Below, in pieces: positions 6,132 to 37,611 of a stretch of 64,000 nt of DNA. Made by a program: the position numbers and the translations under genes. The stretch lies in the sequence record JX128257; one strand, 5' to 3'. Each line of letters starts with the position of its first letter. Positions within the stretch are counted from its first letter, which is position 1. The notes under the pieces are model-generated. The model saw only the letters and a program-made list of their open reading frames with translations, was not told the origin of the DNA and ran no database searches. The stretch is from Escherichia phage ECML-4.

Positions 6132-6160
6132 GTTTACTTCTTCAATAACTGGCGTATACT
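6132..6160 (+). promoter_or_regulatory. T4-early-like sigma70 promoter (GTTTAC-N17-TATACT)
   Basis: GTTTAC at 6132-6137, 17 nt spacer, TATACT at 6155-6160; preceded by palindromic TTATTGAATAA box; about 50 nt upstream of CDS 6210. Confidence 0.5.
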
Positions 6161-6209
6161 TCTAATTGTAGTACGAACAAACAACAATCTGAAGAGAAGG
6201 AAATACATC

Positions 6210-7521: not shown

Positions 7522-7552
7522 CAAAGGGGCTTAATGCCCCTTTGTTTATTTC
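7522..7552. terminator. bidirectional rho-independent terminator between convergent genes
   Basis: CAAAGGGGC-TTAAT-GCCCCTTTG followed by TTTATTT; lies between the stops of 6965..7510 (+) and 7546..8004 (-). Confidence 0.6.
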
Positions 7553-8039: not shown

Positions 8040-8489
8040 TTAGGCTTCTCTCTTCGCCAGCCCTGGTTTGAATACCACCATTTCTTCTACGTTATTGGCA
8101 CTCATAGAGGCTATGGAATCGAATCCTTTATTGATAAGTTCCTTCACATTATCGTGAATCTTACCAGGTTCTATCCCCAACTCACGCATTTTGTTTTCCC
8201 AAACAGAAACGTTATTAGAATCTATTACCAGAGTCTTCTTGGCCTTAACACGAAATGCCATGACAACAGGTTCACCAGATTGACGATAGCGAACGGCGTT
8301 TTCCGCGTAGATCTGCGCTTTTTCTGGATCCCCTGTCAGGTAAAATCCAGCACCCATCGTACCAGAGTCAGTCTGGCCAAATTTTTCAAAATCAAAGACG
8401 TCGAATTCAACATTCGACCCATGATATAAAACAATATCCGTAAAATCGGGCAATGTTGATTCACGATAGAATTCTAGGAAGGTTTTCAT
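8040..8489 (-). CDS. putative ADP-ribosyltransferase-like protein (H-Y-E type, tentative)
   Basis: Ordered motifs LYHGS ... GAGFYLTGD ... EEMVVF resemble the H-G-S / aromatic / catalytic-Glu pattern of PARP and diphtheria-toxin-like ARTs. Motif-level only. Confidence 0.3.
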   Translation of the reverse strand: MKTFLEFYRESTLPDFTDIVLYHGSNVEFDVFDFEKFGQTDSGTMGAGFYLTGDPEKAQIYAENAVRYRQSGEPVVMAFRVKAKKTLVIDSNNVSVWENKMRELGIEPGKIHDNVKELINKGFDSIASMSANNVEEMVVFKPGLAKREA

Positions 8490-8528
8490 GGATACCCCAC
8501 ACTTGCTGTATGGGGTATTTAGGAGGGA

Positions 8529-16266: not shown

Positions 16267-18047
16267 TGGCCACGCAAACAGTTCCTTCACTCGACGTCAG
16301 AGCCTTTGAGTACATTATCAAACAGCGAATGAAAGCTGATCCCACCTTTAAAGATTATGACTTTGAAGGTTCCGGTCTTAGTGCTATTATTCGTTTGTTG
16401 GCATCTGATGCGAACGCCATAGCCTTTATGCAGAACATGCTTAATGGTGAAGGCCATTTAAAAACAGCAAATCAACGTTCTAATGTTGGTTTGTCTGCTG
16501 CTTTTCTTTCTTACACCCCCGACAACTATCGGGCGGCATACATGTATGCCAACATCAAAGTAACGCCGTATGACGCTAGCACAGCTCCTAATGAGATCAT
16601 TATGGACCGCCGTGTGATGTTCGTTGGTGCAAAAGATGGTAGTTCCTACAACTTTACTGTTGAGAACCCCGTGTCCGCCACGTTGACTGCAGACGGTTAT
16701 TACATGTTCAACAATGTAAAGCTGATTCAGGGTAACTGGTTGTACAAGACTTATGATGTTGAAGGAAGCGCGATTTCGACTTATACGATACCTTCGGAAA
16801 ATGTTGATATCAATCATCTGGTCGTACAGGTACAGGAATCAGAGTCCTCTGATGTTTCAACGACATACCAGAGATACAACAGTCCATTTGACCTGAGCCA
16901 ATATGCCTACCTGTATTTCGTAGAATTAGGCATTGACGGTCTGTATGTGTTTGAATTCGGAGATGGTTATCTTTCGCGTCGAGTAGAAGATGGCAACGTC
17001 ATATTCCTTCAATACTTGGAAACTTCTGGTGCTGATGGAAATGACATCACAAGCCTGTCGTCAGCGTCTTCCATAGGCGGGTTTAACCAAGTTGATGTAG
17101 AATTAGTTTCCGAACGTAGCGCGGGCGGGGACAATCCGGAATCCATTGAAGACACCAAACGGTTGGCTCCTTTAGCTTATCAGGCTGATGGTGCTGCGGT
17201 TACAGAAACCGATTATGGCGTATTGACCGAAAGGTTATTCTCCAACGTCGCCCGTGCTAAATCATATGGCGGTGATACGCTTTCCCCTCCGGATTCTGGT
17301 TACGTTTATATCGCTGTGATACCATCTGTTGGGGAGACTCTTTCAGACGCAGAGAAGGCTGATATCGTTGCCGCGTTGGACAAATACAACGTTGGGTCCA
17401 TCACCCCCAAAGTAGTAGATTCTGAGATCACATATATCCAAGTCGCCACGACTATATTTTGGGATCCGACTTCAACGGTTTATGTTGAAGAACAAATGAA
17501 AGTGGTGGTGGGTAATAGTATCACCAAATGGGGTGAAAACAATCTCGGCGGTTTTGATCAGTTATTCGACAAAGAGATATTGCAGGAAGCAATTACGAAA
17601 ATGGAACGTTCCATTAACTCAAATATCACGTCTGTCGGTTATAAACGTCATTTCAAACCTGATTATGGTGTGTTGGATAGCTTTACTTTCAGTTATGGGA
17701 GAAGCATTAAACCTGGTTCTGTGAAAATAACAGGGTTTAAACCGCTTCCGGCCGAAGTTGATTTCACATATTATATGCGCGATGACAATGGCGATTTGAA
17801 CATGTATAAAGTGAACAACAACGACACCACTAAAGAATTTTTGGTTCAAAAGACTGGTGTTGTGGATTACGCCAACGGCGTCGTAGATCTTCAGCAGATT
17901 ACGGTTTCAAACTATAATACTGAAGGAGTAACGATCGTTGTGCTACCAGATGGCCTGAATCAGAATATACAGGCTTCACAAAACCAGGTATTCAAAATCG
18001 GTGATGTGGTTGTTACGCCAGAGGTGCGCTATGTCCAAAGATCTTAA
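16267..18047 (+). CDS. baseplate wedge protein (T4 gp6-like)
   Basis: Shares the DYDFEGS motif and general collinearity with remembered T4 gp6; start ATG 16267 after GGAG. First gene of the late structural block. Confidence 0.7.
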
Positions 18048-18887: not shown

Positions 18888-20078
18888 ATGGCCGATTTCC
18901 TGAGTCAATATACAGGTCAGCAGATAGATCAGATATTGGGTTCTGTTGATGACAAAGTAAGTAAAAATGACGTTATTAACGATTTTGAAGTTAACGACCC
19001 GTTGTTTCCACCATCTGCTCGCCTGACTTATGAGTTGAAAAGGTCTGTGGATACGATTAATGATACCCTGACCAACAAAGTTATAAGAACGGATAGTGGC
19101 GAACAGACAATCAACGGTAAGAAGACATTTAATGCGCTGTTGGTTACTAACGGGGGAATCCAAGTCCCCACTGGGAAATCTGTTTCAATCGCGGACGAAC
19201 CAACCAACTCAACAGACGGTGTCAACCTGAGTATGTTGAGGAAACATGGTGTCAGTGAAGACACCGCGCCAGATGGGTCTGGTTTGGCTGGGGAATTATT
19301 GACTTCCGGATATTACAAATTCAAACTGGATTTTAACAGATTGGCTGCGTATACGGAATTAACTCTCCCAACATCAGTTCCCGTGCAAACAGATTCTGGA
19401 GTTCGCACATGGTCAATGACTGCATTTTTTAATGCGTTATTTGCCGACGACCGTTTTAACGGTTATGTAACGACGACCACGTATGATGCCGACATGTTGA
19501 GTCTGGAGTCTCAGCTTAACAATATCAACACGACGTTGAACGGCAAAGTCAACACGTCAACTTACAACACAAAAATGGCTTCGTTGGATTTGAGTATATC
19601 CAACATTAACACATCTTTGAGCAACAAGGTTGAGGTCAGCACATATAATACGAAGATGACTTCCTTGGACGGCAGTATCAGTTCTCTCACGACTGGTAAG
19701 GTCGATGTATCAACGTATAATGCCAAAATGACCACAATTGATAACAGTTTGGGGAACGCTGTTTATCGCACCAAAACAAACTTGTCATCACTGACAGTAT
19801 CGGCTTCTGGAACAACAGCTCTGCCAGACTTTGATTTGGTGAAACTTTGCCAGATATTGGTAACAGCACAATGGGGTACAGGAGATGTCGTAGACACATA
19901 TCGTGTCACCATAACTCGAGACGGGACGATTAAGTCTGAGCTGCTGATCCAGAAAAGTACGAGCGGAACTGTGACGTTTACGGGTTCTGTAGTTGGTGGG
20001 AAACTGAGGATTTCTGTTGTCAATGCCAATACGACAACACCTTGCTCAGTCGATTATTCTATTACAGCATCTTTCTAA
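18888..20078 (+). CDS. fibre-like protein with tandem roughly 20-aa repeats
   Basis: Repeats such as VNTSTYNTKMASLDLSISN / VEVSTYNTKMTSLDGSISS / VDVSTYNAKMTTIDNSLGN; ATGGCC start 3 nt after the upstream stop. Confidence 0.55.
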   Translation: MADFLSQYTGQQIDQILGSVDDKVSKNDVINDFEVNDPLFPPSARLTYELKRSVDTINDTLTNKVIRTDSGEQTINGKKTFNALLVTNGGIQVPTGKSVSIADEPTNSTDGVNLSMLRKHGVSEDTAPDGSGLAGELLTSGYYKFKLDFNRLAAYTELTLPTSVPVQTDSGVRTWSMTAFFNALFADDRFNGYVTTTTYDADMLSLESQLNNINTTLNGKVNTSTYNTKMASLDLSISNINTSLSNKVEVSTYNTKMTSLDGSISSLTTGKVDVSTYNAKMTTIDNSLGNAVYRTKTNLSSLTVSASGTTALPDFDLVKLCQILVTAQWGTGDVVDTYRVTITRDGTIKSELLIQKSTSGTVTFTGSVVGGKLRISVVNANTTTPCSVDYSITASF

Positions 20079-20080
20079 AA

Positions 20081-20120
20081 CTAAATACCCCTAGATGACA
20101 TGAATACATTTAGGGGTATT
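20081..20120 (+). promoter_or_regulatory. late-promoter-like CTAAATA box embedded in 10-bp inverted repeat
   Basis: CTAAATACCCCTA ... TAGGGGTATT immediately upstream of ATG 20125. Confidence 0.5.
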
Positions 20121-20124
20121 ACAA

Positions 20125-23100
20125 ATGGCCAACAAACCAACACAGCCTCTTTTCCCTTTGGGTTTAGAAACTTCGGAGTCTTCGAACATAAAAGGCTTCA
20201 ACAACTCCGGCACCATAGAGCATTCCCCTGGTGCAATATTGACGTTCCCTGAAGATACTGATGTTGCGGGTCTCCCATCTTCTGTGCGTTACAATCCTGA
20301 TAGTGATGAATTCGAAGGTTATTACGAAAATGGCGGGTGGTTGTCTTTGGGCGGCGGTGGAATACGCTGGGAAACGCTCCCATACGCTCCCTCCAGCAAT
20401 CTGTTAGAAGGGCGCGGCTATCTCATTAATAACTCCACTGGGACTTCTACGGTGGTTCTTCCTTCCCCTACGCGCGTTGGTGACTCGGTTACAATTTGTG
20501 ATGCCTATGGTAAATTCGCGACGTATCCATTGACCGTATCTCCAGCGGGAAATAACCTGTACGGCTCCACCGAAGATATGACGATATCCACCGATAACGT
20601 GTCGGCGACTTTCACTTGGTCTGGTGCTGAGCAGGGTTGGGTTGTTACATCTGGTGTTGGCCTCGGTCAAGGTCGTGTGTACAGTCGAGAGATTTTCACT
20701 CAAATTTTAGCATCTGATACAAATGAAGTGACTCTCAACATCCCTCCGACAATTGTGGACGTGTACACTGATGGGAAACGCCTTACAGAATCCAAATATT
20801 CTTTAAATGGAAACGTAATCACTTTCGACCCTTCTTTACCTGCTGGCACTGAATTGCAGGTAATAGAATATACTCCGATTCAGTTAGGTACTGGCGGCGG
20901 GGGTTCGGGCGCTTCTGCAATCACCTGGATTTACAATGGCGGATCCGCTATCGGCGGCGAAACCGAAATAACGCTAGACATCGTTGTAGATGATGTTCCG
21001 GCTATTGATATAAACGGGTCTCGTCAGTACAAAAATCTTGGATTCACGTTCGACCCATTGACGAGTAAAATCACTCTGACGCAAGAACTGGAACCAGAAG
21101 ATGAAGTTGTTGTGGTTATAAATGGGACACCAAACATCTATAACCAGATCGATCGTTCTTTACAGGAAGTTGCTCGCGCCTACAATTTTACAAATGCTCA
21201 AGTTATTTTGAGCAACGATTATACTTCTGTGCTGGATAATAAAGTCGTTATTTATGATACGACATCCCAACGTTCTTGGGGGATTCCATCTGGAATTCCA
21301 GCAGGTTCTACAGTGGTTTCCGTCAATGGGGATCAACTGAAATACAAAAATGGATCAACTGAAACCACTGTTACATTGGTGAGCGTACCAGGTAGTGCAG
21401 AGAAGTTGAAGAACGATCTGGCGTCGAACTCTGGCGCGGGTATGTTGAAAACTTCTAGAGGTGATACCGTAGAAGAAGAATTGACTTTTATTAATCAGAA
21501 TATGGTCGTTCAAATTTCAGATTTCGCGAGCCTTAGAACTTTAGTGCCAGCCACAGCGGGCATCCGAGTCAAATTGAAAGGTTATTATTCTGGTTCTGAA
21601 ATTGGTGGCGGAGAATTCATTTCCGTCGCTGGTGATGCTGTTGATGATGCTGGGATGATTGCTCGAGTGTCAAGCAGCTTCTATTGGAAGAGAATTATCG
21701 ACAAACATATTACTCCTGGTATGTATGGCATCAAAGGGAATCTTCCAGAAGATCCGGCAGTGAAACTGAACGCTATGTTTGCGGCTGCGGCTGCGGCTAA
21801 CGCTTATGTCTTACTGAACGATGTCGATACTCTGGTCTGTAAAAGCCCTGTCGTGATCCCAGCACATTCATTAGTGTACGGCAACAAGCGGACCATATTG
21901 AAACGTGATGCATCGTTGTCATATGCTAATGATTTCTTGACAATTATGAATGATTCATATGTCAAGGGGATCTATGTTGATGGTAGCCGTTTAGATTCTC
22001 AGACTCCGCTAGAAGCAGTTTTGGTGCGCATCGCTGGGAATGTGACTATCCATAAGAGCGAGATCCGAAACAATGCTGGCTATGGCGTTGTTGGTAACGC
22101 AGTCCCTGGCATTCGTATCACCAAGAACATTTTTTCCAACTTCGCCAAAGGTTGTGTGGCTATGTTTGGTGACGGAACGGCGACGAGTGATGATCTGCAA
22201 ATTAATGATAACAGATTCTTTAACCTGGGCGCGGGAACCATTTATGTTGGCGGTTACTCAAACTTCCTTGTCGACAAAAACGTCGGAAGAGGCACTTACG
22301 TGGGTTCTCCAGGAAACCGTCTGTATGTTGTGACCAATACCAACGGGACTATCACCCAAAGCGCTGGGCCAGATTTTGGGGCGCTGAAAACGGGTATGTT
22401 CTTTGTATTGCCTGGTGGTTCTGAACATATGATAACGGCAGTCAACAGCCTTACAAGTGTGACAGTAACCCCAGCACCTCCGTCGAATGCAACGGTTCGT
22501 GCAATTGCTGGGACAGGGGATCTTCTGGGCATCCAATCATGCTCCTACGGCACCATCAGCCGTAACAACCTGACCGATTGTGTGACTTACGGAACTGGTG
22601 GAGGCACGATGGAGGGGAGCACTCTGGGGTGCAATTATGTCACATGGGAAGACAACTTCATCCGCAACACAGGTAAGAACGGAATCAACGTCGGGCAATC
22701 AGGCGCTGGGGTCGCCACGTGTTCAATCCTGAGGAACACTCTGATACAGGTTGGTAACGGCGGTCAGGGTGTTGGCCCAGCGTATCTTCTGCCTTGGTTC
22801 GATACGGTAGGTATTGCTCTGTATCAGGGAAACCCAGGTTATATGGCGAATATGGACGTCAGTGATAACAACGTCTCTACATGGTCTGGCGATCTGAATG
22901 ACGGCGCTGCTTGGTTTGGTATGAGCGGTTGTACGGAAGCCACTGTGACTTGTACAGGCAACAAATCTTCTGGTTATTCCGACGGCTATGTTCGTGGAGA
23001 TATATTAGAAGTCACGTTGACAGGTTATGGTACAGGGGCGGCTGCGACTTCATTCGTTAGTGATGGTGAGTCTATACAGATAACTGTTCAAACAGGTACT

Positions 23101-23298
23101 TCACCAACAGCTTCTCCTTATTTTTCAGTGCGGAAGGCGATCCGCACCCGCCATCAACCGATGATAACGGCGCAGATCGTCACCACAACTGGGAACATGT
23201 CTCATTGTTGGGGTATGCAATCTAGTACAGCAGGAAATTGGATGGTGGGTCAGAATACAACTCCTTCAGGGGTCACGACGTATTACGCAAAAGGGTAA
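20125..23298 (+). CDS. tailspike protein with large N-terminal assembly region and beta-helix-like domain (1057 aa)
   Basis: N-terminal block shared with the 926-aa tailspike (DRSLQEVARAYNFTNAQVILSNDYTSVLDNKVVIYDTTSQRSWGIP vs DRSIQEIARSANVKDSEVIVSTDTISLLDGKKVVYDIAAQTSYGLP); Gly/Asn-rich repetitive C-terminal region typical of beta-helix depolymerases. Confidence 0.7.
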   Translation: MANKPTQPLFPLGLETSESSNIKGFNNSGTIEHSPGAILTFPEDTDVAGLPSSVRYNPDSDEFEGYYENGGWLSLGGGGIRWETLPYAPSSNLLEGRGYLINNSTGTSTVVLPSPTRVGDSVTICDAYGKFATYPLTVSPAGNNLYGSTEDMTISTDNVSATFTWSGAEQGWVVTSGVGLGQGRVYSREIFTQILASDTNEVTLNIPPTIVDVYTDGKRLTESKYSLNGNVITFDPSLPAGTELQVIEYTPIQLGTGGGGSGASAITWIYNGGSAIGGETEITLDIVVDDVPAIDINGSRQYKNLGFTFDPLTSKITLTQELEPEDEVVVVINGTPNIYNQIDRSLQEVARAYNFTNAQVILSNDYTSVLDNKVVIYDTTSQRSWGIPSGIPAGSTVVSVNGDQLKYKNGSTETTVTLVSVPGSAEKLKNDLASNSGAGMLKTSRGDTVEEELTFINQNMVVQISDFASLRTLVPATAGIRVKLKGYYSGSEIGGGEFISVAGDAVDDAGMIARVSSSFYWKRIIDKHITPGMYGIKGNLPEDPAVKLNAMFAAAAAANAYVLLNDVDTLVCKSPVVIPAHSLVYGNKRTILKRDASLSYANDFLTIMNDSYVKGIYVDGSRLDSQTPLEAVLVRIAGNVTIHKSEIRNNAGYGVVGNAVPGIRITKNIFSNFAKGCVAMFGDGTATSDDLQINDNRFFNLGAGTIYVGGYSNFLVDKNVGRGTYVGSPGNRLYVVTNTNGTITQSAGPDFGALKTGMFFVLPGGSEHMITAVNSLTSVTVTPAPPSNATVRAIAGTGDLLGIQSCSYGTISRNNLTDCVTYGTGGGTMEGSTLGCNYVTWEDNFIRNTGKNGINVGQSGAGVATCSILRNTLIQVGNGGQGVGPAYLLPWFDTVGIALYQGNPGYMANMDVSDNNVSTWSGDLNDGAAWFGMSGCTEATVTCTGNKSSGYSDGYVRGDILEVTLTGYGTGAAATSFVSDGESIQITVQTGTSPTASPYFSVRKAIRTRHQPMITAQIVTTTGNMSHCWGMQSSTAGNWMVGQNTTPSGVTTYYAKG

Positions 23299-23306
23299 TA
23301 TTGAAT

Positions 23307-23345
23307 GCCTAAATACCCCATATTGGTCATCCTTTATGGGGTATT
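23307..23345 (+). promoter_or_regulatory. late-promoter-like CTAAATA box embedded in 11-bp perfect inverted repeat
   Basis: AATACCCCATA (23312-23322) and TATGGGGTATT (23335-23345), 3 nt before ATG 23349. Confidence 0.55.
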
Positions 23346-23348
23346 ATC

Positions 23349-25232
23349 ATGATTTCTCAATTCAATCAACCACGCGGCTCCACTTCCATAGAAGTTAACA
23401 AACAATCTATCGCTCGAAATTTCGGTGTCAAAGAAGACGAAGTCATTTATTTCACTGCTGGTATTGATCTCAGTGGATTTAAAGTAATTTATGATGAGTC
23501 TACCCAACGGGCTTATTCTCTCCCTTTCGGTATTGTTTCAGGGACAACTGCAATTAGTCTGGATGAAAGAGCTATCCTCACTCATTCCGCTGGCTCTGTT
23601 GACCTTGGGGAATTAGCAGTAAGCCGCGAAGAATATGTGACTTTACCTGGTTCTTTTAATTTCGGCCATACCATTAATGTGAAAAATGAACTTCTTGTTC
23701 ACGATGATAAAAAATATCGATGGGATGGCACATTACCTAAAGTTGTTCCTGTTGGATCAACTCCTACAACAACTGGGGGAATTGGGGTTGGTGCATGGTT
23801 GAGTGTTGGTGATGCATCGCTACGTGGTGAATTATTTTCAGAATACATCTTATACAAAACACCTCAGGCATTTGGTGCTATTGGTGATGGAGTTGCTGAT
23901 GACACTTTATCACTGCAAGATGCAATGGATTACTGTCAGGTTCACAACGAGAAACTTGTTATCCCATCAGGACGCTATCGAATCACCAAGCCACTGCTAT
24001 ATCGCAACCAGGGTTTTTATAACTATGAGATTGAAGGGCAGGGAGGTGCTGCTGTAATCATCATGGATTCTCTGGAAAAAACTGGAATTACTGCTCCTGA
24101 TGCCTTTGGCGATGATTTTAACGTTAACGCAGCGATGGTAGTTCTGAATGACACTAACCAGAGTAAGTATTGCCGCATTAGTGGATTGCGTTTCGAATCA
24201 CCAGTTGGTGCTGAATATGCTATTTATGTTGGTCAGGCAGAAAATACGTATATCCATGACTGCTTCTGGACTGGTTTCACCTTTGGGTGGTATGACCTTG
24301 GATCATGGGTTACACGCGTAGAACGCTGTATTGCCAGGGATATTGTAGATACTGGGTTCTTTAAGAAAAATGGCACCAGTACCTACATAGCTGAGTGTTA
24401 TGCAGACAGGATGATGCGAGGGTATTACCTCGGGGGTGGGTATTCGGCTATCATAAATTGTGCTTGCGATTTAACCACTCGCTGGGGGTTCTATCTATAT
24501 GGTGGTAGGACTGGTTCTGATTTAGCAACATTCTCTATTAAAGGTTGTGGTTCAGAGCAGTCTGGAACTGATTCTGTATTTTATGTTGACGGGCTAGTTG
24601 CGCTGTCTATAGAGGACCACAACGCAGGTAATGACCCAACTGTTCAACCAGCACCTGCTGCGTTGCTTAGCATGGCTTCGAATACATCATATTCACAAGT
24701 GGTGCTGAAAAATATTAGGACAGTAAATGTGGATACATTAATTTTGGATTCTGCTGACCATAATTATTTTGATTTAACAAATGTCACATGCCGCAGCGAG
24801 ATGTCGAAAGAATTTTATCTCGGTACGAATTCAAGAGTTTTAAAAAGGTCATATGATGGTGAAAGATTCATTACTAGCAACGACCAAGTTGGCATTGGCT
24901 TTGCGGAGTCTGATATTGTTGATGGATGGACAGATCTCACTTTGTCTGGACTAAGAAATGGACAATTTATAATTAGGAGGACTGTAAGCATACCCAGAAC
25001 TTCAGGGGATGCTGGGGCGGTAACTATCACGATGCCATTAAATATGGATACGAATTATACCGTAGCTGCCACTCTGGAGGGTGAATTTAGTCAACTGCAA
25101 TCCATTTGCCCTGTGTTCAGTGTTACAGATAAAACATCATCTAGTTTTTCTTTGTGTGCATCGTCTGCAAAGAATAATACAACATGGTCAGCTATAGATG
25201 TTGAGGTGATTATATATGGGCTGAAATCGTAA
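23349..25232 (+). CDS. tailspike protein (627 aa)
   Basis: N-terminal about 150 aa shared with the 744-aa tailspike (MISQFNQPRGSTSIEVNKQSIARNFG vs MNPQFAQPKGSTSKESNKDSIARKFG; YRWDGTLPKVVP vs YRWNGSLPKVVP). Confidence 0.7.
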   Translation: MISQFNQPRGSTSIEVNKQSIARNFGVKEDEVIYFTAGIDLSGFKVIYDESTQRAYSLPFGIVSGTTAISLDERAILTHSAGSVDLGELAVSREEYVTLPGSFNFGHTINVKNELLVHDDKKYRWDGTLPKVVPVGSTPTTTGGIGVGAWLSVGDASLRGELFSEYILYKTPQAFGAIGDGVADDTLSLQDAMDYCQVHNEKLVIPSGRYRITKPLLYRNQGFYNYEIEGQGGAAVIIMDSLEKTGITAPDAFGDDFNVNAAMVVLNDTNQSKYCRISGLRFESPVGAEYAIYVGQAENTYIHDCFWTGFTFGWYDLGSWVTRVERCIARDIVDTGFFKKNGTSTYIAECYADRMMRGYYLGGGYSAIINCACDLTTRWGFYLYGGRTGSDLATFSIKGCGSEQSGTDSVFYVDGLVALSIEDHNAGNDPTVQPAPAALLSMASNTSYSQVVLKNIRTVNVDTLILDSADHNYFDLTNVTCRSEMSKEFYLGTNSRVLKRSYDGERFITSNDQVGIGFAESDIVDGWTDLTLSGLRNGQFIIRRTVSIPRTSGDAGAVTITMPLNMDTNYTVAATLEGEFSQLQSICPVFSVTDKTSSSFSLCASSAKNNTTWSAIDVEVIIYGLKS

Positions 25233-25270
25233 TTATTGTATTAAATAAATAACTTATCTTTTATTAAAAA

Positions 25271-25297
25271 ACCCCGCTTCGGTGGGGTTAGTTTTTA
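25271..25297 (+). terminator. rho-independent terminator
   Basis: ACCCCGC-TTCG-GTGGGGT followed by TAGTTTTT, downstream of the 627-aa tailspike gene. Confidence 0.6.
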
Positions 25298-25399
25298 GAA
25301 GTTGTTGATGGTAATCGGCGATGATTGCTCATTTTGTTTTGGGTAATTCTTCGATCTTCAGTCGTTAAACGCCATCATTGCTGCTTCCCATCCCAGCGC

Positions 25400-25414
25400 C
25401 ACACACACACACAC
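25400..25414. repeat. (CA)7 dinucleotide microsatellite in intergenic region
   Basis: CACACACACACACAC read directly at 25400-25414. Confidence 0.9.
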
Positions 25415-25531
25415 TATGCATCCGGCATTTAAAGATGCGGAAAGGTAATCAATCTGGCCTTCCTCCCAATCGCTAATTGTGTGGTCTTTCCTCTTGCTTC
25501 TGGTGTTTCTTTGTCCGGCGCTGGGAATTAT

Positions 25532-25831
25532 ATGGTAATTTCGGGAAACACGTTGATGGCTAATAACCCATCTGCGCCTGAAAATATAACTTTGTATCAG
25601 GTCACAGGTGCGCAGAGTTGGGTGGCCCATTATGAAACTATCAGATGTGTTCGAAATGATTTCAAATCTGCGCTGTTGGCGATTAATGCAACAGGGACAG
25701 CACAATCTGGTTTGAGTACTACCAATAAATTCTGGTTCGGGGATAACGCGACGATCAATACCACGGTTGTTTGTACTTATCCTGCTGGCAACAAAGCCAA
25801 CACCGATATCACTCAGACAGTTTCAGTTTAA
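25532..25831 (+). CDS. small Ser/Thr/Asn-rich protein (start uncertain)
   Basis: Track ORF 25481..25831 begins at GTG; first in-frame ATG at 25532. Composition resembles fibre-type domains. Confidence 0.3.
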   Translation: MVISGNTLMANNPSAPENITLYQVTGAQSWVAHYETIRCVRNDFKSALLAINATGTAQSGLSTTNKFWFGDNATINTTVVCTYPAGNKANTDITQTVSV

Positions 25832-25842
25832 ATTGAATTGAG

Positions 25843-25881
25843 CCTAAATACCCCATATTGGCAAATCCTTTATGGGGTATT
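25843..25881 (+). promoter_or_regulatory. late-promoter-like CTAAATA box embedded in 11-bp perfect inverted repeat
   Basis: AATACCCCATA (25847-25857) and TATGGGGTATT (25871-25881); same arms as the element at 23312-23345. Confidence 0.55.
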
Positions 25882-25886
25882 TTCAA

Positions 25887-28652
25887 ATGACCAGAAATGT
25901 AGAAGAATTATTCGGCGGCGTAGTCACAGCTCCCCACCAGATTCCTTTCACTTATAAATCAAGTGTCGGTGGAGAAACTTTCTTTTCTCTACCTTTCTAT
26001 CCTGTCACTGGTGTTGTCACAATCAACGGTGGTATGCAAGTTCCGTTAGAGAACTTCGAGATAGACGGGAATACGTTGAATCTCGGGCGCGCATTGTCCA
26101 AAGGCGATGTTGTGTATTGCTTATTCGATAAAATTCTTTCACCAGAAGACACTGCCAAAGGCATCCGCATATACAAATTTCAAGCCGTGGGTGGAGAAAC
26201 CGAATTCACGCCTGACTTTACTTCTTATGGTGTACAGTCTCTTTATATCGGTGGCGAATACAAAACTCCTGATATAGAATATTCATACAACAGTACGACT
26301 GGGAAAGTGTCTTTGCAAACTGCATTGACTGCAGGCGTTTGGGTAGTCGCTGAAATCTCTGTTAAACAACCGAATATCAGTCCGGCGTTTGACCGCAGTA
26401 TTCAAGAAATTGCCCGTTCTGCTAATGTGAAAGACTCTGAAGTCATCGTTAGTACGGACACCATATCTTTGTTGGATGGGAAGAAAGTTGTTTATGACAT
26501 AGCGGCACAAACCAGTTATGGTTTACCAACCATTCCTGATGGTTCTGTCATTTCTACGATCTCAGACGGGAAATTGAATTACAACCCAGGTGATGTGCAG
26601 GTTGATTTGTTGCCTTTAGAAGATTCATTTATTAATGTGATAAACACTCTGGGGCGCAATGATGGTGCCAAGTATATCGGAGAATGCCATTCTGTTGCTG
26701 ATCTCAGGAATACTGAACCCACTATGGATGGACAACGCATTATTCTTAAGCAACACACTGCGGGTACTCTTCTTGGTGGAGGGGTATTCCGTGCGTTAAT
26801 TGATGGTACAGGAAAGACTGATGATAACGGTACTGTGATCAAAACTGTTGGCGGCGCAGCCTGGTTACGTGTTAATGCTGATAGAGTTAACCCATTCATG
26901 TTTGGTGCTTTGGGTGGTTCTAATGATGATACTATTCCAGTACAATCTTGTGTGGACAGTGGTAAGGCCACACAATTAACTGGTATACATTACGTTAGCA
27001 ATATCCAGTTAAAATATAATACGTCGTCTATTTATGGGTCTGGATTACATTACTCCAGGTTGCATCAGTTGCCTTCTGCTACTGGGAATTGTATTACCAT
27101 AAAAGATACATGCTCCCTTATTGTATTAGACTCCTTTGGGGTATATGGCACAGGTGCACAACAAGGCACATCATTTACTGCGGGTACAACAGGTATCTAT
27201 ATAGAAACTCCTTCAGGTCTCTCAGCCGATTATCCGTTCCACACTACCGCAGACCCAAGACGCGACTTGTGTATTTCTAAGGTCCATATAGCAGGTTTTG
27301 ATGAATATGGGTTAAATATTGATAGTGGTAACTTTAGTGTTACTACAGATTCTCTTTTAGTCAACCACATCAATCAGGTGGGCGTCCGTTGTGCTACTAC
27401 TGATTGGACTTGGACAAATATCCAGGTTAATACCTGCGGTAAACAATGTCTGGTTCTTGATGGTTGTGGTAATGGTCGTATTATTGGTGGTAAATTCATT
27501 TGGGCTAACTGGCAACCTTATGGTACAGTAGGACAGTTCCCAGGCATTACTATTAATAATAGCCAGAATATGGTTATTAATGGTATTGAGGTACAAGATT
27601 GTGGCGGGAATGGCATTGAGATTAGCGATTCATATTCAATTTCCATGAACGGATTGAACACCAATCGTAACGGCATCAACGCTAACAACACTTTCTACAA
27701 CATCGTATTTAACAAAAGTGATGCAGTTATCAACGGATTCGTAGGACTCAATTATGCCGCGAATAGTGGTTCAGGTGCTAACTCTAGTGCGGGCAATTTT
27801 CAGTTCCTGTCTAATGATTGCAGCGTCACCATTAATGGTGTGGTTGAGACTGGTTATATGGGCATTAACTTTATTGGTGATAACAATATTATCAACCCCA
27901 CAAATTCCGACCTGAGCATTAACGGATTGGTTAATTATTCCAAGACTGGTTTGCAAACCATGAACGAGACCCCTACATTTGATGGTGTTAGCACTACACC
28001 TGTTTATGTAAGTGTCCCATCTTCTGTAGGGCAAGTAAATGGTCTGAGACTATCACAAGCCAACAAAGATAAATTACTGTACTCAAGAACAGCAGGTCCA
28101 GAAGGTATTACCATGGCTGCTGTTGTAGTACCTACCATATCTGGAGCTGAAGTATTTAACTTCATGGCCATTGGTTCAGGGTTTAGTGATACATCCAACA
28201 GTCTTCATCTTCAATTAGTTATAGACGCTTCCGGAAAACAAACAATTGCTTTGCTATTGGGGGGCGATGGTACAACCCAAATTTTATCTGGGGATTTACC
28301 TAACGACCTTAAACTACAAAGTGGTGTGCCATATCATATAGCTATTGGTGCTAAACCTGGATATTTCTGGTGGAGTATTCTTAATATTCAGACGGGTAAG
28401 AGAATCAGACGGTCATTCCGAGGCGCTTATTTAGCTGTACCATTTAATTCTATATTCGGATTAACTTCTTCATTAACATTCTTCTCGGATAGCAATGCTG
28501 GTGGGGATGCCTGTTCTGGTGTAGGTGCTAAAGTGTATGTTGGTATGTTCTCTTCTGAGAATGATTATGTAGCTTCACGGTACTACAACCTGATTAATCC
28601 TGTAGACCCTAATAAGTTAATTAGTTACCGTATATTGGATTCTTCTATTTAA
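25887..28652 (+). CDS. tailspike protein with beta-helix-like domain (922 aa)
   Basis: Start set at ATG 25887 (MTRNVEEL), downstream of the hairpin; track ORF begins at 25872 inside the hairpin. Shares N-terminal module with the 1057-aa tailspike. Confidence 0.7.
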   Translation: MTRNVEELFGGVVTAPHQIPFTYKSSVGGETFFSLPFYPVTGVVTINGGMQVPLENFEIDGNTLNLGRALSKGDVVYCLFDKILSPEDTAKGIRIYKFQAVGGETEFTPDFTSYGVQSLYIGGEYKTPDIEYSYNSTTGKVSLQTALTAGVWVVAEISVKQPNISPAFDRSIQEIARSANVKDSEVIVSTDTISLLDGKKVVYDIAAQTSYGLPTIPDGSVISTISDGKLNYNPGDVQVDLLPLEDSFINVINTLGRNDGAKYIGECHSVADLRNTEPTMDGQRIILKQHTAGTLLGGGVFRALIDGTGKTDDNGTVIKTVGGAAWLRVNADRVNPFMFGALGGSNDDTIPVQSCVDSGKATQLTGIHYVSNIQLKYNTSSIYGSGLHYSRLHQLPSATGNCITIKDTCSLIVLDSFGVYGTGAQQGTSFTAGTTGIYIETPSGLSADYPFHTTADPRRDLCISKVHIAGFDEYGLNIDSGNFSVTTDSLLVNHINQVGVRCATTDWTWTNIQVNTCGKQCLVLDGCGNGRIIGGKFIWANWQPYGTVGQFPGITINNSQNMVINGIEVQDCGGNGIEISDSYSISMNGLNTNRNGINANNTFYNIVFNKSDAVINGFVGLNYAANSGSGANSSAGNFQFLSNDCSVTINGVVETGYMGINFIGDNNIINPTNSDLSINGLVNYSKTGLQTMNETPTFDGVSTTPVYVSVPSSVGQVNGLRLSQANKDKLLYSRTAGPEGITMAAVVVPTISGAEVFNFMAIGSGFSDTSNSLHLQLVIDASGKQTIALLLGGDGTTQILSGDLPNDLKLQSGVPYHIAIGAKPGYFWWSILNIQTGKRIRRSFRGAYLAVPFNSIFGLTSSLTFFSDSNAGGDACSGVGAKVYVGMFSSENDYVASRYYNLINPVDPNKLISYRILDSSI

Positions 28653-28706
28653 AAATATACCCCTCTTCGGAGGGTATTTACTAGAGAAAAACAGGAGATT
28701 CTTATT

Positions 28707-30941
28707 ATGAATCCGCAATTTGCTCAACCAAAAGGTTCTACTTCAAAAGAATCGAACAAAGACAGTATTGCTCGTAAATTTGGGTGTAAAAAGTCGGAAG
28801 TCGTTTATGCGAAATCAGGACAGTCCTTGTCTGGATATAAGGTTATTTATGACAAGGAAACACAGAGAGCGTATTCCTTGCCTGTAGATATTCCAGCAGG
28901 AACCACGGCTATTAGCCTTAGCGCCAGTGCTCTGCTTGTACACTCTGGGGGTTCTGTAGACCTGGGCGAACTAGCTTCCCAACGCAATGAATATAATGTA
29001 TTACCTGGTTCTTTTACTACTGGTGCAATAGTATCCACAAAGAATGATGTACTTACCCACAATGGTATCCAGTATCGTTGGAATGGTTCATTACCTAAAG
29101 TTGTACCTCAGAACTCTTTACCATCCAGTGATGATAATTGGATTGGCTTGGGTGCTTCTTATCTGAAGGAACAGCTTAACAGTACCAGTGGTGCATCCAT
29201 GGTAGTACTGGCTAATGGCAAAACCATTGAAGAAGAATTTGCCGAAGAAGCTGCATGGCAGAACCAAGAGAATATGGTGAGAACCGTTATTCCTAATGTT
29301 TATCACCATATCCGTGGCGTTCAGCGTCACTCTGGTAAAAACTTAGCATGGTCTGCTCCAGACGTTGCTATTGATAAACTTAACCCTACGGATACCGTCT
29401 TCTACCGTATGCCCCAGATTGTTAAAACTGGTGATGGTACTCTGATGATTTTCTGTAATGAGTTGCATGGTAACAATACAGATATTGGTGCTACTCCAGA
29501 TCAGCAATGTAATATCGTTATGAAATACTCCATTGATAATGGGTGGTCTTGGTCGGCTAAGGTAGTGGTAGCTAACTTTGGGGCTACGTATCAGAACGGT
29601 GAGATTGCTGCTGTGTATAACCCAGTAGATGGTCGGGTATACTGTTACTTTACTTCCTGCAAAGGCCAGTTGGGTTGGGGATACTCACAGCCAGGCAATG
29701 ACCCTAATACATCATCCCAGATATATGTTACCTACTGTGATGCGGAAGCTCCTACTATATGGCGTACACCAGCTAACATTACTGCTACCCTTAAGCCAGC
29801 AACGGCAGATTTTATCTGGACTTCACCAACTAAACCAGTTGTTTTACCGGATGGTAAGATGGCAATGATTGTGTCTACCGTCACTGGTTCACGGGTTGAT
29901 TCTTTCCTTACCATCATGAAGTATGACATTAAGTACAGCATGGACTACGTACTTAGTTCCGAAGAATCTGGTGGGGAAGTCGGACTGAACCTTTTGCCGG
30001 ATGGTCGTATGGTGATGAACTCTCGTGCTTACCACACCACAGACCTTAAAGGGCTTCAGAAATTCTATATCAGTGATCATCAGTTTAAGAACTGGCAGCA
30101 CTTATCTGATTTAGTTACATCGGATAGTAAGGGTGACCTGGTTCCTATTTTTGATGGGGTTAATGGTGTTCTTACTTGGGCGTTTACTTGTGCTAATGGT
30201 GTAGGTGATAATTCTATTGGTCGTACTAACTACCGAGTATGGATTAGTCGTGACCTAGTTACTTGGGGGTTAGCTCCTACTGGGGATATCAACACAAGTG
30301 ATTCTGTTGGGTACATCGCATCAATGCCTGGTGGTGATGATGGTTATGTAATCTCTACATCTGAATCAGGTGGTTTTGGTGGTATTTGGTTTACTCAATG
30401 GAATGCTAAGTATATCCAGAACAGAAACTACAACCGCTATCACAAAGAGTTGCGAGAATTAGAGTCAGTAGATGAAACAGCAATGCTCGCATCCGGCGCT
30501 ATTCCTAACTACTCTTTTTACGTAAACAAAGACTCCAACCTAATTAACTTCAACCGCAACGGTACTCCAGTTAAGATTCAGCAATTGGGGGTTAGTCAGA
30601 ATGCTGTTGATAAGTACACTACAACTCAGACCCTAGCATCTATTCCTGTAGATGGTGTTGATATTGTATTAGTCACTGGTTCCGGTATTACTCTTACCCT
30701 TAGTGGGTTTAGCGGTGGATATATGGGCCAGCGTGTGACAGTTATCTCTGATTCATCTGGTGGTGGGGTAGTGCTTAAACGTGCTGATACAACATTGCCT
30801 ACTGTAACGGACAGATTCCACTTTAATGTGGCAGGAGCCTTTACTGCTTTGAGGGTAGACTATGCAACTAAGATGATGGTTACTTTAGTTAAGACTCCAT
30901 CTGGTTGGTTCACGGAAAGTATTGCTAACGTAACAATCTAA
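28707..30941 (+). CDS. tailspike protein with sialidase-like (BNR/Asp-box) domain (744 aa)
   Basis: Shared N-terminal module with the 627-aa tailspike; YRMP motif resembling the sialidase (F/Y)RIP motif, followed by Asp-box SIDNGWSW (SxDxGxTW pattern). Confidence 0.65.
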   Translation: MNPQFAQPKGSTSKESNKDSIARKFGCKKSEVVYAKSGQSLSGYKVIYDKETQRAYSLPVDIPAGTTAISLSASALLVHSGGSVDLGELASQRNEYNVLPGSFTTGAIVSTKNDVLTHNGIQYRWNGSLPKVVPQNSLPSSDDNWIGLGASYLKEQLNSTSGASMVVLANGKTIEEEFAEEAAWQNQENMVRTVIPNVYHHIRGVQRHSGKNLAWSAPDVAIDKLNPTDTVFYRMPQIVKTGDGTLMIFCNELHGNNTDIGATPDQQCNIVMKYSIDNGWSWSAKVVVANFGATYQNGEIAAVYNPVDGRVYCYFTSCKGQLGWGYSQPGNDPNTSSQIYVTYCDAEAPTIWRTPANITATLKPATADFIWTSPTKPVVLPDGKMAMIVSTVTGSRVDSFLTIMKYDIKYSMDYVLSSEESGGEVGLNLLPDGRMVMNSRAYHTTDLKGLQKFYISDHQFKNWQHLSDLVTSDSKGDLVPIFDGVNGVLTWAFTCANGVGDNSIGRTNYRVWISRDLVTWGLAPTGDINTSDSVGYIASMPGGDDGYVISTSESGGFGGIWFTQWNAKYIQNRNYNRYHKELRELESVDETAMLASGAIPNYSFYVNKDSNLINFNRNGTPVKIQQLGVSQNAVDKYTTTQTLASIPVDGVDIVLVTGSGITLTLSGFSGGYMGQRVTVISDSSGGGVVLKRADTTLPTVTDRFHFNVAGAFTALRVDYATKMMVTLVKTPSGWFTESIANVTI

Positions 30942-30974: not shown

Positions 30975-31105
30975 CTATGTCTCGTTAACCTGACAGGAAC
31001 TGGAAGTTCAAAACTATCAGGTGGAGGAACTGGGTTTTTATTTCTATCTGTTTGTTGGCTGTATACTAAATATCTCTATAAAATGGCACTAGATGGAGCA
31101 TCAAA

Positions 31106-34100
31106 ATGCAATCTACAAATTTAAACCGTCGCCCGTATTGGGATGACTGGAATCCTGGGAAACGTTTTTCACGGATTCTTTTTCGTCCGATGCCTATCAA
31201 GGTTCAGACTCGCGAACTGAACCAGATGCAGACTATTCTTCAGGATCAAATTGAAAAACTGGGCAACCATCTGTTCAAAGATGGTTCTATGGTTATCCCT
31301 GGCGGTCTGACGATCACCAATGCCGCAGTCTCTTTGAAATTCACTTTGGCGGGTGGTACTGAATTCACCGATCTGGAAGGTATTTCTGAACTCTACGTTT
31401 TGGGGAAAGACAATAACGCCAAAGCGCGTGTGTTGTCTCTTGAACGTGATCTGTCTGCTCCTGATACGATGTTGGCCATCCTTGAGATGACTGAAGCGGG
31501 TAATGCTGACGGATTCCATGTTAACGATAATCTGTATTTCCAGACTTACGACGTGAATGATAATTTCATTCGTATTGGTTATGGGATCGCGGCTGCTGTA
31601 ACTGGTTCTATCGTTGCTCGTATGACGAAAGGCGTTTACTTCATTCGTGGGATGTTCCTTGATGTTGATGACGCGACTCTCATCGTCGATAAAACTTCAA
31701 ACACTTCTTCCCATCGCGTCGGGTTTAAAGTCACCGAAACCATCGTGACTGAATCTGAAGACGAATCCCTTTATTCAAACGCTCAGGGAACGATTAACTC
31801 CAAAGCCCCAGGCGCTCATCGTCTTCGAATAGATCTGGTCTTATCTCGATTTGATTATGATGCTGTGGTTGAAGACTTTGTTGAACTGGCCAAAGTTCGT
31901 GATGGTAAAATCCAGTCTATGGTGACTCAGTCCACCTATAATATTCTGGAAGACACGTTGGCTCAACGGACGTATGAAACCAACGGCGATTACAACGTTT
32001 CAACGCATCAGATCGACATCCGCGAACACCTGAAAGTCAATAACAATGGTGGAGTATTCAATGCTGCTGATGGCGGCGACGAAAGTAAATTCGTGTCTGT
32101 AATGAAACCAGGTATTTCCTATGTTCGCGGTCGTCGTATCGAAAACGTCGGGGAAGAGTTGGTGATCGTTGACAAGGCACGGGATACCGATGTCCTGAAT
32201 AACACGCCTGTCGCAGTTGCTACAGGGAATTATCTGGTCACCAAGAACTCCAAAGGTGTTCCAGTAATATCTCGCACTGTGCGATACAAGTTATTGAACG
32301 CATCCGGCGCTACTCAAGCCACGGCGTTGTGTATATCCGCTGAACGCAATTCAACTGAATTCCGCCTGTACATGCGTGATTTAGTTGTGACTGGGGACGC
32401 GTCCACTATCACCAAAGTGTCTTATGAAGAAAGTGGGATCACCATGTTTTCTGCTGAACTGGAATCCAACCAGTTTAACCAGAGTTCTATGGTAGACCTG
32501 ATCTTCTCTCTTCCGGTCTTCGGTGTTAAAACATTAGCGCCAACAGGTTCCGTGGATATCAACTACACAGTCCTCAGAACTTATAAGGTGACGCTAGACA
32601 GCAGCGGTTCTGGTTCTATTTCAGCCCCGCTGGGATATAGTTTTTCCCCAGAATTTTCGTTGTACTCTGCAGCGAAATCAGATGGTTCGGAAGCGCAGTT
32701 CGATATCTCTGGCTCTTTGTCTTTGACTGGTTCTCCGGTCGGTTCGGCGCTGCAGATTTCTCTGGGTAGTGGTAATGCTAACCAGTCAATCAATTTGCTG
32801 GCGCTGATGATTCGTACCACGGCCACAATCAAAACGAAGACCATCACTGAAACAACTGAAACAGTGACGTTCACATCACAGACCAGCCGTCCTTTGGCGA
32901 ATCACGATGGTTGGAAATTGGTATCGGTCAAAAACGATACTGGCGCAGACGTGACCTCTAGCTTCGTTCTAGATGGTGGACAGCGTGATGCAGGGTATTA
33001 CAAGTCTAACTTGTTATCCAGCGCTGGAGCAATCTCAGGGACGTATACAGTGGTGTATCAATACTTCGCCCACAGTTCCGGTGATTTCTTCTCTGCTGAT
33101 TCGTATACTTCGATGGATTATAAAGATATCCCGAATTATACATCTTCTACATCAGGCGCGGTGTACGGCCTGGCAGATAGTTTAGATTTCCGTCCGAAAA
33201 TCACCAACGGAACTTCTGACACAGATATGGTTCGTCCAAACACTGCAGTTATTCTGGACACAGAATATTATCTGCCGCGTATCGACGCGATTTATCTGGC
33301 AGACAACGGTGTGTTTGGTGTGGCTCGAGGCATCAGTTCTAATAATCTGGCTTCTCCAGCAATCCCAGCGAACGCCATGCGTTTGTATGAATTGTTGATC
33401 CCGCCGTATACACCGAATATTGATGATATCCAAATTCGAACTATTGATAATCGTCGTTATACAATGCGCGATATCGGTAAACTGGAAACCCGTATTTCCA
33501 ATGTTGAATACTATACCTCTCTGTCACAGCTGGAATCTTCAGCGATGACACAGCAAGTGTTTGACCCCATCACGGGTAATCCTCGTTTCAAAAATGGTAT
33601 TGCAGCTGATCCGTTCAAAGACTTCCGGTTGATTGATGACTTGTCTGAAGATTGGATGGGTTCTATCGATACCGAAAACGGACGTCTACGCCCGTTTGTA
33701 CAACAGAACGTTGTTGACATGACTCCGGTTGGCTGGAACAAAGTGATGGATGGGATGGTGGTTTGTAATTACACACCTGAAATCTCAGTGAACCAAGAAT
33801 ATGCGACGACGACGATCAACGTTAACCCGTATGCAGTATTCAATTGGGAAGGTTTCTTGAAGATTAACCCGACCACAGACTACTGGTTCGAAAACTATTA
33901 TGTTGCCCCGCGTATTATTAATGAAACGATCAACACCCGTGGTACTGTACAAGAAGGTTCAGTGTACGGAACATGGCGGACTGTTTCTGTTTCTGATCGT
34001 GTTTGGGAGCCGCATGGTGCTGGTGGTGTGTGGTGGGGATATCGTTACCGCACGACTGTTTCTGCCCGTGATGTCACCACATATACATACACGGACAAAA

Positions 34101-37550: not shown

Positions 37551-37611
37551 TTATCAATTCCTCAAAAGAATTAATGATTGACTAAATACCTTCAAAATTG
37601 AGGGTAAAGTC

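Follow-up and report, generated by a model that had tools for sequence, protein, structure and literature searches.

In bacteriophage T4, genes e, soc, 49 and I-TevI are carried on long early transcripts in which a helix covers the Shine-Dalgarno (SD) sequence/AUG region, and these RNAs are not translated (McPheeters et al. 1986; reviewed in PMC3014915). The late promoters of these genes lie in the DNA of the 5′ strand of the helix, and late transcripts, which are made without that strand, are translated (PMC3014915). In the Ackermannviridae, homologues of gp55, gp33 and gp45 have been reported in ViI, CBA120 and AG3 (PMC3184105), and CTAAATAcCcc is quoted as one of two 'unique regulatory motifs' of the viunalikeviruses/Ackermannviridae (PMC7283392). 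The accessible genome papers of these phages either call the late promoter unidentified or locate late promoters by similarity to T4. The CTAAATAcCcc motif, which reportedly goes back to Adriaenssens et al. 2012 in Arch Virol, appears in the accessible genome papers as a bare sequence motif, and no link to a hairpin or ribosome site was found there. Here we describe a 64,000-nucleotide stretch of Escherichia phage ECML-4 (JX128257; the window, below), in which late-type boxes upstream of tailspike and other genes are built into hairpins that pair with the ribosome site, an arrangement that may act as in T4.

A preliminary description of the window had reported inverted repeats carrying a T4-late-like TAAATA box before the start codons at 20125, 23349 and 25887, with a related element at 54198. 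All four were confirmed, the hairpins opening with CTAAATACCCC at 20081, 23309 and 25844 and with TTAAATACCCC at 54198; their 3′ arms end 2–5 nt before the ATG and hold a GGGG(U) SD sequence, so that the right arm does lie over the ribosome binding region as had been proposed. The emphasis on tailspike genes proved too narrow, since the same design is found 5′ of a neck gene, a UvsW-type helicase gene and three genes of unknown function. The list of copies was also incomplete, lacking those at 8522(−), 16219, 57376 and 11341(−). At least eight hairpin copies are present in 64 kb. The elements are listed here with their predicted folding energies and, as z-scores, the comparison of each fold with dinucleotide shuffles.

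20081–20127, plus strand: element of tailspike gene TSP4; box 20081–20087, 5′ arm 20084–20097, loop 20098–20106, 3′ arm 20107–20120 (with GGGGU), ATG 20125; reads from 20081 CTAAATACCCCTAGATG, 9 nt, CATTTAGGGGTATT, ACAA, ATG; −19.1 kcal/mol, z −5.0.
23309–23351, plus strand: element of tailspike gene TSP3; box 23309–23315, 5′ arm 23312–23322, GG/CC sub-stem 23325–26/23331–32, 3′ arm 23335–23345, ATG 23349; reads from 23309 CTAAATACCCCATA, 12 nt, TATGGGGTATT, ATC, ATG; −19.6 kcal/mol, z −4.2.
25844–25889, plus strand: element of tailspike gene TSP2; box 25844–25850, 5′ arm 25846–25857, 3′ arm 25871–25882, ATG 25887; reads from 25844 CTAAATACCCCATA, 13 nt, TATGGGGTATT, TTCAA, ATG; −19.0 kcal/mol, z −3.6.
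54198–54230, plus strand: element of gene 54228–54956, which corresponds to the C-terminal portion of the phrog_289 profile; box TTAAATA 54198–54204, 5′ arm 54200–54210, loop 54211–54214, 3′ arm 54215–54225, ATG 54228; reads TTAAATACCCCCA, 4 nt, TGGGGGTATTT, TT, ATG; −19.4 kcal/mol, z −4.8.
8487–8522, minus strand: element of gene 8040–8489(−), the fifth full copy; box 8522–8516, 5′ arm 8518–8508, loop 8507–8503, 3′ arm 8502–8492, ATG 8489; reads CTAAATACCCCATAC, agcaa, GTGTGGGGTAT, cc, ATG; −17.2 kcal/mol, z −4.8.
37582–37614, plus strand: element of neck gene gp14 (37612–38253); box 37582–37588, 5′ arm 37587–37594, 3′ arm 37599–37606 (with GAGGGU), ATG 37612; ACCUUCAA pairs with UUGAGGGU in an 8–9 bp hairpin onto the GAGGG ribosome site; −14.3 kcal/mol, z −4.4.
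57372–57410, plus strand: weaker element of the UvsW-type helicase gene (57408–58913); box 57376–57382, inner stem 57383–57387/57394–57398, outer stem 57372–57379/57402–57409, which covers the AUG; −15.5 kcal/mol, z −4.0.
16219–16268, plus strand: weaker version at baseplate wedge gene gp6 (ATG 16266); box 16219–16225, stem 16225–16236/16250–16261 with one mismatch and one G·U; −17.1 kcal/mol, z −3.2.
11308–11341, minus strand: weaker element of gene 11075–11308(−), with a box of the T4-like ATAAATA form; reads ATAAATAGATCT, gacttgtaaagg, AGGTCT, att, ATG, and forms a 6-bp box-to-SD hairpin including one G·U.

In every hairpin element the 5′ arm begins at base 3 to 7 of the box and ends 4–11 nt past it. 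The only SD-like run (GGGGU, GAGGG or GGAG) lies in the 3′ arm, at the correct spacing from the ATG, and this arm ends 2–7 nt before the ATG. The four elements first noted have stems of 11–14 bp and fold with −19.0 to −19.6 kcal/mol (z −3.6 to −5.0). Two of them were said to share identical arms, correctly: the TSP3 and TSP2 elements have the same 11-nt arms, AATACCCCATA/TATGGGGTATT (23312–23322/23335–23345 and 25847–25857/25871–25881), and are two copies of one direct repeat of about 44 nt. When the arms of 12 representative elements were permuted, cognate arms gave a summed duplex energy of −194 kcal/mol against −120.5 ± 11 for permuted arms, and none of 20000 permutations was as low; as these elements had been picked for having hairpins, the test shows only that pairing extends beyond the shared CCCC/GGGG core. 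The stems contain 12 G·U pairs against one A·C mismatch, indicating that the structure is read on the sense RNA, unlike a DNA palindrome.

The preliminary description had proposed a census of the motif, and this was carried out. With up to one mismatch, CTAAATACCCC occurs seven times in the window against 0.76 expected, a number reached in none of 100 shuffles; there are four exact and three one-mismatch copies of CTAAATAcCcc. The box alone, CTAAATA, occurs 15 times against 7.4 expected, and 14 of the 15 copies lie within about 50 nt 5′ of a start codon on the same strand. A+T-rich DNA also follows variant boxes at the major capsid gene (CTAAGTA, 49448) and at the portal and tube genes (CTAATTA, 45589 and 44982), and in Vibrio phage VPALA CTATATA or CTATCTA seems to be used. 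From the regions compared across genera the late-box consensus of the family is CTAA[A/G/T]TA, and the variants, together with the apparent VPALA forms, make it looser than the published CTAAATAcCcc. To call the box T4-late-like was reasonable, and CTAAATAcCcc had already been published for these phages as a regulatory motif.

The T4 late promoter TATAAATA spans −13 to −6 (PMC2988020), and the box described here aligns with its −12 to −6 positions. If the T4 spacing is shared, +1 would be the sixth nucleotide after the box, close to where the 5′ arm ends. Each element was folded both as read-through RNA and as RNA starting at this T4-type +1. Read-through RNAs gave −9 to −21 kcal/mol, with a mean predicted probability of 0.00–0.35 that the SD sequence is unpaired. 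RNAs from the T4-type +1 retain 0–6 stem pairs and gave 0 to −5 kcal/mol and an SD unpaired probability of 0.39–0.88.

Other boxes have no hairpin, and there the two RNAs folded with the same outcome. The following belongs to this class.

31066–31108, plus strand: box without hairpin at the gene for the 1612-aa VriC-like baseplate protein; z about 0, AT-rich after the box.

The class also comprises 41832, 47311, 48529, 8043(−), 49448 (CTAAGTA) and 45589/44982 (CTAATTA), and no significant structure (z about 0) was found at the boxes of the VriC-like, sheath and scaffold genes, small gene 47345 and gene 7546–8004(−). Five boxes had earlier been described as simple ones; those at 31066, 41832, 47311 and 48529 indeed lack a significant hairpin, but the fifth, at 37582 (given as 37578), is the gp14 box and has one. 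Downstream of the box the DNA is A+T-rich at hairpin-free sites, as in T4, and CCCC at hairpin sites. Pairing between the box-proximal 16 nt and the last 20 nt upstream of the ATG was counted with a threshold of at least nine base pairs, which was reached at 9 of 24 sites with a box and a start, compared with 10 of 105 control upstream regions (Fisher p = 0.0017). The division between hairpin and hairpin-free boxes tracked neither the presence or absence of an upstream terminator nor that of a same-strand neighbour.

Taken together, these features lead us to lean towards the view that the design of T4 genes e, soc, 49 and I-TevI, with a late promoter in the 5′ arm and the ribosome site in the 3′ arm, explains the elements. 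In each element, the 5′ strand of a hairpin would house a late promoter of the gp55 type (CTAA[A/G/T]TA, corresponding to T4 TATAAATA), and the SD region of the gene would be the 3′ strand. RNA arriving from upstream, whether early, middle or long late polycistronic, would hold both arms, fold and mask the ribosome site. RNA initiated at the element itself, starting about 6 nt past the box, would lose most of the 5′ arm, leaving the site open for translation, and the gene would be expressed essentially only from its own late promoter. We infer promoter activity, start position and the effect on translation, the first two by extrapolation from T4. The suggestion in the preliminary description that the ribosome site is sequestered in read-through transcripts fits both this anatomy and the comparative data.

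For this comparison we used related phage genomes. The window is that of a Kuttervirus, a Vi01-like Salmonella/E. coli phage: its 19500–26500 segment is 97.8% identical to Salmonella phage Vi01, and about 250 further Ackermannviridae records match. Upstream regions were compared in Vi01, KpS110 (Klebsiella, Taipeivirus), PP35 (Dickeya, Limestonevirus), Serratia phage 3M (Miltonvirus), E. coli phage RPN242 (Aglimvirinae, no genus in the record), Vibrio phages YC (Campanilevirus), K490 and VPALA, and about a dozen Kuttervirus contigs from IMG/VR; the orthologue sets are small, with about 12 Ackermannviridae genomes in IMG/VR. Conservation of the inverted repeats in related phages had been named beforehand as a test of the idea, and they are kept across five Ackermannviridae genera. 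Hairpins persist in Kuttervirus, Taipeivirus, Limestonevirus, RPN242 (Aglimvirinae) and Miltonvirus; the loops vary, and the arms are kept or change with pairing preserved. Box, hairpin, register with box and ribosome site, and conservation are all shown by these sequences.

The TSP4 hairpin was found in each of the five genera with this gene (KpS110, PP35, RPN242 and 3M besides Kuttervirus), with a variable loop. A G·U pair of the window is G-C in KpS110, where MAFFT had set the 3′ arm one column off, and one base pair is deleted on both sides in 3M. The TSP3 element is near-invariant in nine other Kuttervirus contigs, and its upstream flank is variable. At TSP2 four genera share identical arms and retain the small GG/CC sub-stem, with differences in the apical loop. 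The 54228 element has 12 pairs over five genera (RNAalifold). One C-G pair has changed to U·G, and at another position two phages have U-A where 3M has C-G; the covariation term is near zero because the arms hardly vary. A metagenome scan with the 54228 protein alignment gave three loci, all resembling sequences already compared. Among seven distinct orthologues of the 8489(−) element the 5–6 nt loop is the most variable part and the arms are invariant except for one A-U to G·U change. The gp14 hairpin is kept in KpS110 and RPN242, and the gp6 element survives in part in KpS110 and 3M. The same layout recurs, in unrelated sequences, in Vibrio phages YC and K490 (about 37–47% protein identity), at gp14 in YC and at UvsW in both. 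YC gp14 reads CTAAGTATTCC, 12 nt, GGAATACT, gag, ATG, with an 8-bp box-to-SD hairpin; YC UvsW reads CTAAGTTACTTCATG, acca, CATGGAGTAACT, atc, ATG, with one of 12 bp; and the corresponding stem at K490 UvsW is 7 bp. A pattern scan of IMG/VR for TAAATACCCC-N(4–26)-GGGGTAT returned more than 120 matches on all sorts of contigs; terminator-like hairpins match this pattern too, which makes it too unspecific to be informative.

What such control would serve depends on the position of the genes. The gene map is based on the Vi01 annotation and PHROG scans.

ATG 16266, plus strand: baseplate wedge gene gp6.
18888–20078, plus strand: tail-fibre-like gene.
20125–23298, plus strand: tailspike TSP4.
23349–25232, plus strand: tailspike TSP3.
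25887–28652, plus strand: tailspike TSP2.
28707–30941: tailspike TSP1.
From 31106, plus strand: VriC-like baseplate protein, 1612 aa.
Up to about 50.8 kb: neck, terminase, sheath, tube, portal and head genes.
3′ of the head genes: small genes, then gp3, UvsY, exonuclease and the UvsW-type helicase (57408).
From about 16 kb leftwards, minus strand: early region with tRNAs and DNA polymerase.

For 8489(−) and perhaps UvsW, which would lie in early units, the predicted role is temporal control. Upstream of 8489(−), on the same strand, the early-promoter motif TTCAAT-N14-TATAAT occurs once perfectly (15940–15965) and once with one mismatch (10517–10542). The UvsW gene follows uvsY and an exonuclease gene, with a sigma70-like match in the uvsY region. 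The situation of a late gene within an early unit would be reproduced at 8489(−), and may be at UvsW; in T4, uvsW is likewise a late gene. The tailspike genes come after other late genes, and early-versus-late timing can hardly be the purpose there. For the tailspikes, gp14 and gp6, as genes of low-copy virion proteins, we infer that the hairpins serve as dosage insulation, shielding them from read-through of the upstream late operon. Hairpin-free boxes stand mostly at genes for abundant proteins (capsid, scaffold, sheath, tube), which is consistent with such shielding.

A wider reading is possible, and we put it forward tentatively. The cCcc half of the late motif would be the anti-SD arm and not a promoter feature, and late expression would fall genome-wide into two classes: abundant virion proteins on bare boxes with A+T-rich flanks, translated from every transcript, and low-copy or strictly late proteins (the three tailspikes, gp14, gp6, UvsW and others) in box-in-hairpin cassettes, translated from self-initiated RNA only.

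Several observations weigh against the T4-type explanation. The tailspike genes lie behind late genes of the same strand, where temporal control as in T4 is not obviously applicable, and no early-promoter motif was found upstream of them. The TSP3 stem is shortened to 9 bp in RPN242 and carries an A·C in one Kuttervirus, the 54228 element has a bulge in PP35, and the gp14 hairpin is lost in PP35. A double-sided compensatory change occurs at only one of the 12 pairs of the 54228 set, the orthologous sets being too conserved for many. CTAAATACCCC stands without a GGGG partner 5′ of the 8004(−) orthologue in PP35 and RPN242, so that CCCC may also be a promoter feature. A search of the accessible literature returned no mapped late starts, 5′ ends, reporter data or transcriptome for the Ackermannviridae. 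Five genera retain the U-rich run behind the 54198 hairpin, as might be expected of a terminator, and the hairpin upstream of TSP1 leaves its ribosome site (AGGAG, 28693) outside, which fits a terminator origin.

These last two points bear on the strongest alternative, that the hairpins, in intergenic spaces of 30–45 nt, are factor-independent terminators or attenuators or 3′-end stabilisers of the upstream gene. Insulation of the unit would then be their job and the overlap with promoter and ribosome site a side effect, although the two functions may coexist. G+C-rich stem cores followed by UAUUUU-type runs at 25882 and 54225 agree with this, as does the hairpin between TSP2 and TSP1 (28655–28675), which has similar arms, leaves the SD sequence uncovered and is replaced by plain terminators in Vi01 and RPN242; composite terminator/promoter cassettes are moreover known in T4-like phages (PMC4122927). 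The elements nevertheless depart from intrinsic terminators: the tailspike loops are 9–13 nt long, and U-tracts are absent or not conserved at TSP4, TSP3, 8489(−) and gp14, the only conserved one being that at 54198. The terminator scan listed no box-hairpin element but did list canonical terminators at 25270, 30947 and elsewhere. The box of YC gp14 has a canonical terminator directly upstream and yet keeps its box-to-SD hairpin. Strict inclusion of the SD sequence, and a 5′ arm beginning within the box, recur in unrelated sequences and are not needed for a terminator. At the gathering score, Rfam reported five tRNAs in the whole window and no family for the box-hairpin elements. We regard termination as an unlikely main function, and the earlier proposal that it is coupled to late initiation is correspondingly the weaker part of the preliminary description.

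It is less probable that the repeats act mainly on DNA, as homology blocks (PeSL-like) for swapping tailspike genes or receptor-binding modules. TSP3 is flanked by the direct repeat of about 44 nt formed by its own element and that of TSP2, which in RPN242 reaches about 30 nt further upstream. In Kuttervirus, homology resumes at the box while the 3′ ends of the upstream genes differ, and right-hand homology boundaries with Vi01 fall at or near the next intergenic element, at 28660 and 31032. Exchange of tailspikes by homologous recombination has been shown experimentally (PMC11414711). The visible swap junctions, though, are at 23764 within the N-terminal coding sequence of TSP3 and at 25489 in the old gene, neither at a hairpin, and single-copy genes without any swap have this design as well (gp14, UvsW, 8489(−) and 54228). 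Homology blocks require no inverted symmetry, G·U bias or register with the SD sequence, and the literature credits conserved 5′ coding domains for the exchange.

Translational coupling, in which a ribosome finishing the upstream gene melts the 5′ arm and so fixes a 1:1 output of neighbouring virion proteins, is more doubtful still. At TSP4 the upstream stop (20076–20078) is 3 nt before the box, and at 8489(−) it is 7 nt before, so that a ribosome would reach the 5′ arm. At TSP3, by contrast, stop and 5′ arm are 14 nt apart, the sequence upstream of the TSP2 element is an untranslated remnant, the neighbour of gp14 is on the other strand, gp6 has no same-strand upstream gene, and the promoter box in every arm is left unexplained. 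A DNA site, be it a palindrome bound as operator by a dimeric regulator or a cruciform that influences the opening of the late promoter, is very improbable: perfect palindromic arms of 10–12 bp do overlap the promoter, and next to the box stands G+C-rich CCCC, at a place that is A+T-rich in T4 late promoters, but arm sequences vary by site and genus with pairing kept, where a protein site would keep its sequence, the spacer varies from 4 to 13 nt, and the excess of G·U over A·C points to sense-strand RNA.

Within the tailspike locus the receptor-binding part of TSP3 has been replaced relative to Vi01, homology stopping at 23764 and resuming at 25489. The swapped segment brought with it a canonical terminator:

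25270–25289 (element 25270–25296), plus strand: canonical intrinsic terminator after TSP3, from the terminator scan.

Lying between TSP3 and the TSP2 element, this terminator means that TSP2 needs a promoter of its own. The insert also carries a (CA)7 run at 25401–25414, and 343 nt of the old TSP3 3′ end (25489–25831, 92.6% identical to Vi01) remain as a non-coding spacer. The hairpin upstream of TSP1 (28655–28675, in the plus-strand region 28651–28711; ATACCCCTC, ttcg, GAGGGTAT) has ATACCCC/GGGTAT arms resembling those of the late-box elements, at a position taken by ordinary terminators in Vi01 and RPN242. In front of it stands AAAAATA, not CTAAATA, and the hairpin could be a degenerate or ancestral form of the box-hairpin element.

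Two further hairpins at ribosome sites were observed. One, at 9723–9776 on the minus strand, 5′ of gene 8529–9722(−), has 12+6 bp (−25.1 kcal/mol, z −6.1), buries an AGGAG ribosome site and extends to the AUG. It has no CTAAATA box and a −10-like TATGAT in its loop, and is kept in KpS110 and PP35, with an A to G change in PP35 that yields a G·U pair; it may follow the same promoter-inside-hairpin logic with a different class of promoter. The other lies at 43773–43814 on the plus strand, where 8 nt separate a CTAAATA box from a G+C-rich UUCG hairpin (43788–43807) whose 3′ arm carries the SD sequence of a GIY-YIG homing endonuclease gene (ATG 43812). Being downstream of the predicted start, this hairpin would persist in late RNA, and it probably also terminates the sheath gene transcript.

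Elsewhere in the window, perfect or one-mismatch TTCAAT-N14-TATAAT motifs were found at 2187–2212(−), 15940–15965(−), 10517–10542(−), 12666–12691(−) and 6141–6166(+). Nearly all are on the minus strand, and they mark the left 16 kb as a leftward early region; with up to two mismatches allowed, the total of 14 does not exceed chance (10 expected). Five clustered tRNA genes lie at 11603–12863(−) (Rfam RF00005, 56–77 bits). The phrog_289 profile ('GTP-binding domain', 500 positions) is split over two plus-strand genes, 53529–53996 matching positions 8–146 and 54228–54956 matching 259–500, and the approximately 230 bp between them contain an ATAAATA box and a small open reading frame. A similar three-gene order is annotated in KpS110 and Serratia 3M: a 'GTP-binding domain' gene (KpS110), a small open reading frame and the 54228 orthologue.

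Ackermannviridae of the ViI, CBA120, Det7 and S117 type are being engineered for diagnostics and biocontrol through swaps of tailspike genes, and essentially no study has addressed their transcription signals; promoters and transcripts alike go unmentioned in a 2024 review of the family. If the T4-type explanation is correct, the box-in-hairpin units mark where a tailspike expression unit starts, a tailspike gene inserted without its own element is predicted to be poorly translated from read-through RNA, and the second half of the signature motif of the family gains a functional meaning. If late expression does fall into two classes, each tailspike gene would be a portable, expression-insulated module of promoter, masked ribosome site and anchor domain, which would explain how receptor-binding genes can be exchanged while the stoichiometry of the branched tailspike complex stays undisturbed.

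The CTAAATAcCcc motif is already published and the hairpin mechanism is known from T4. Modestly novel here is the family-wide, multi-copy use of the arrangement before tailspike modules in late operons. No new principle is involved; a classic post-transcriptional device of T4 would be extended to a second family and to a new use, dosage insulation in late operons. The motif is identical in sequence to the published one, and its four exact copies together with the TTAAATACCCC copy are elements described here; what differs is that every full copy forms the 5′ arm of a hairpin whose other arm holds the ribosome site, and that the boxes of abundant structural genes lack the cCcc part.

Short repeated stem-loop-plus-promoter units beside variable genes, with the potential to serve as points of homologous exchange, are also found in the PeSL cassettes of T4-type phages (PMC2839356, PMC4122927). 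In PeSL cassettes a terminator is joined to an early promoter of the sigma70 type, and the genes that they flank are ORFans of hyperplastic regions; in the elements described here, by contrast, a late-type promoter lies inside the stem, the stem lies over the ribosome site, and no −35/−10 pair is present. The hairpins of the free-standing homing endonuclease genes mobE of Aeh1 and segB of T4 (PMC3014915) likewise cover the SD sequence of a gene reached by read-through but need no embedded promoter, and it is these that the hairpin at 43788–43807 before the GIY-YIG gene resembles. The closest parallel is with T4 e, soc, 49 and I-TevI, which share with the elements a predicted stem-loop over the SD sequence and/or AUG in RNA started upstream, a late-type box in the DNA of the 5′ strand and, if the T4 spacing holds, short leaders; like e and soc, 8489(−) lies downstream of early-promoter motifs. 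The elements differ from their T4 counterparts in that the box is CTAAATA and not TATAAATA, in that the CCCC following it doubles as the anti-SD sequence where the T4 segment is A+T-rich, in numbering at least eight within 64 kb, and in being used before three consecutive tailspike genes within a late block.

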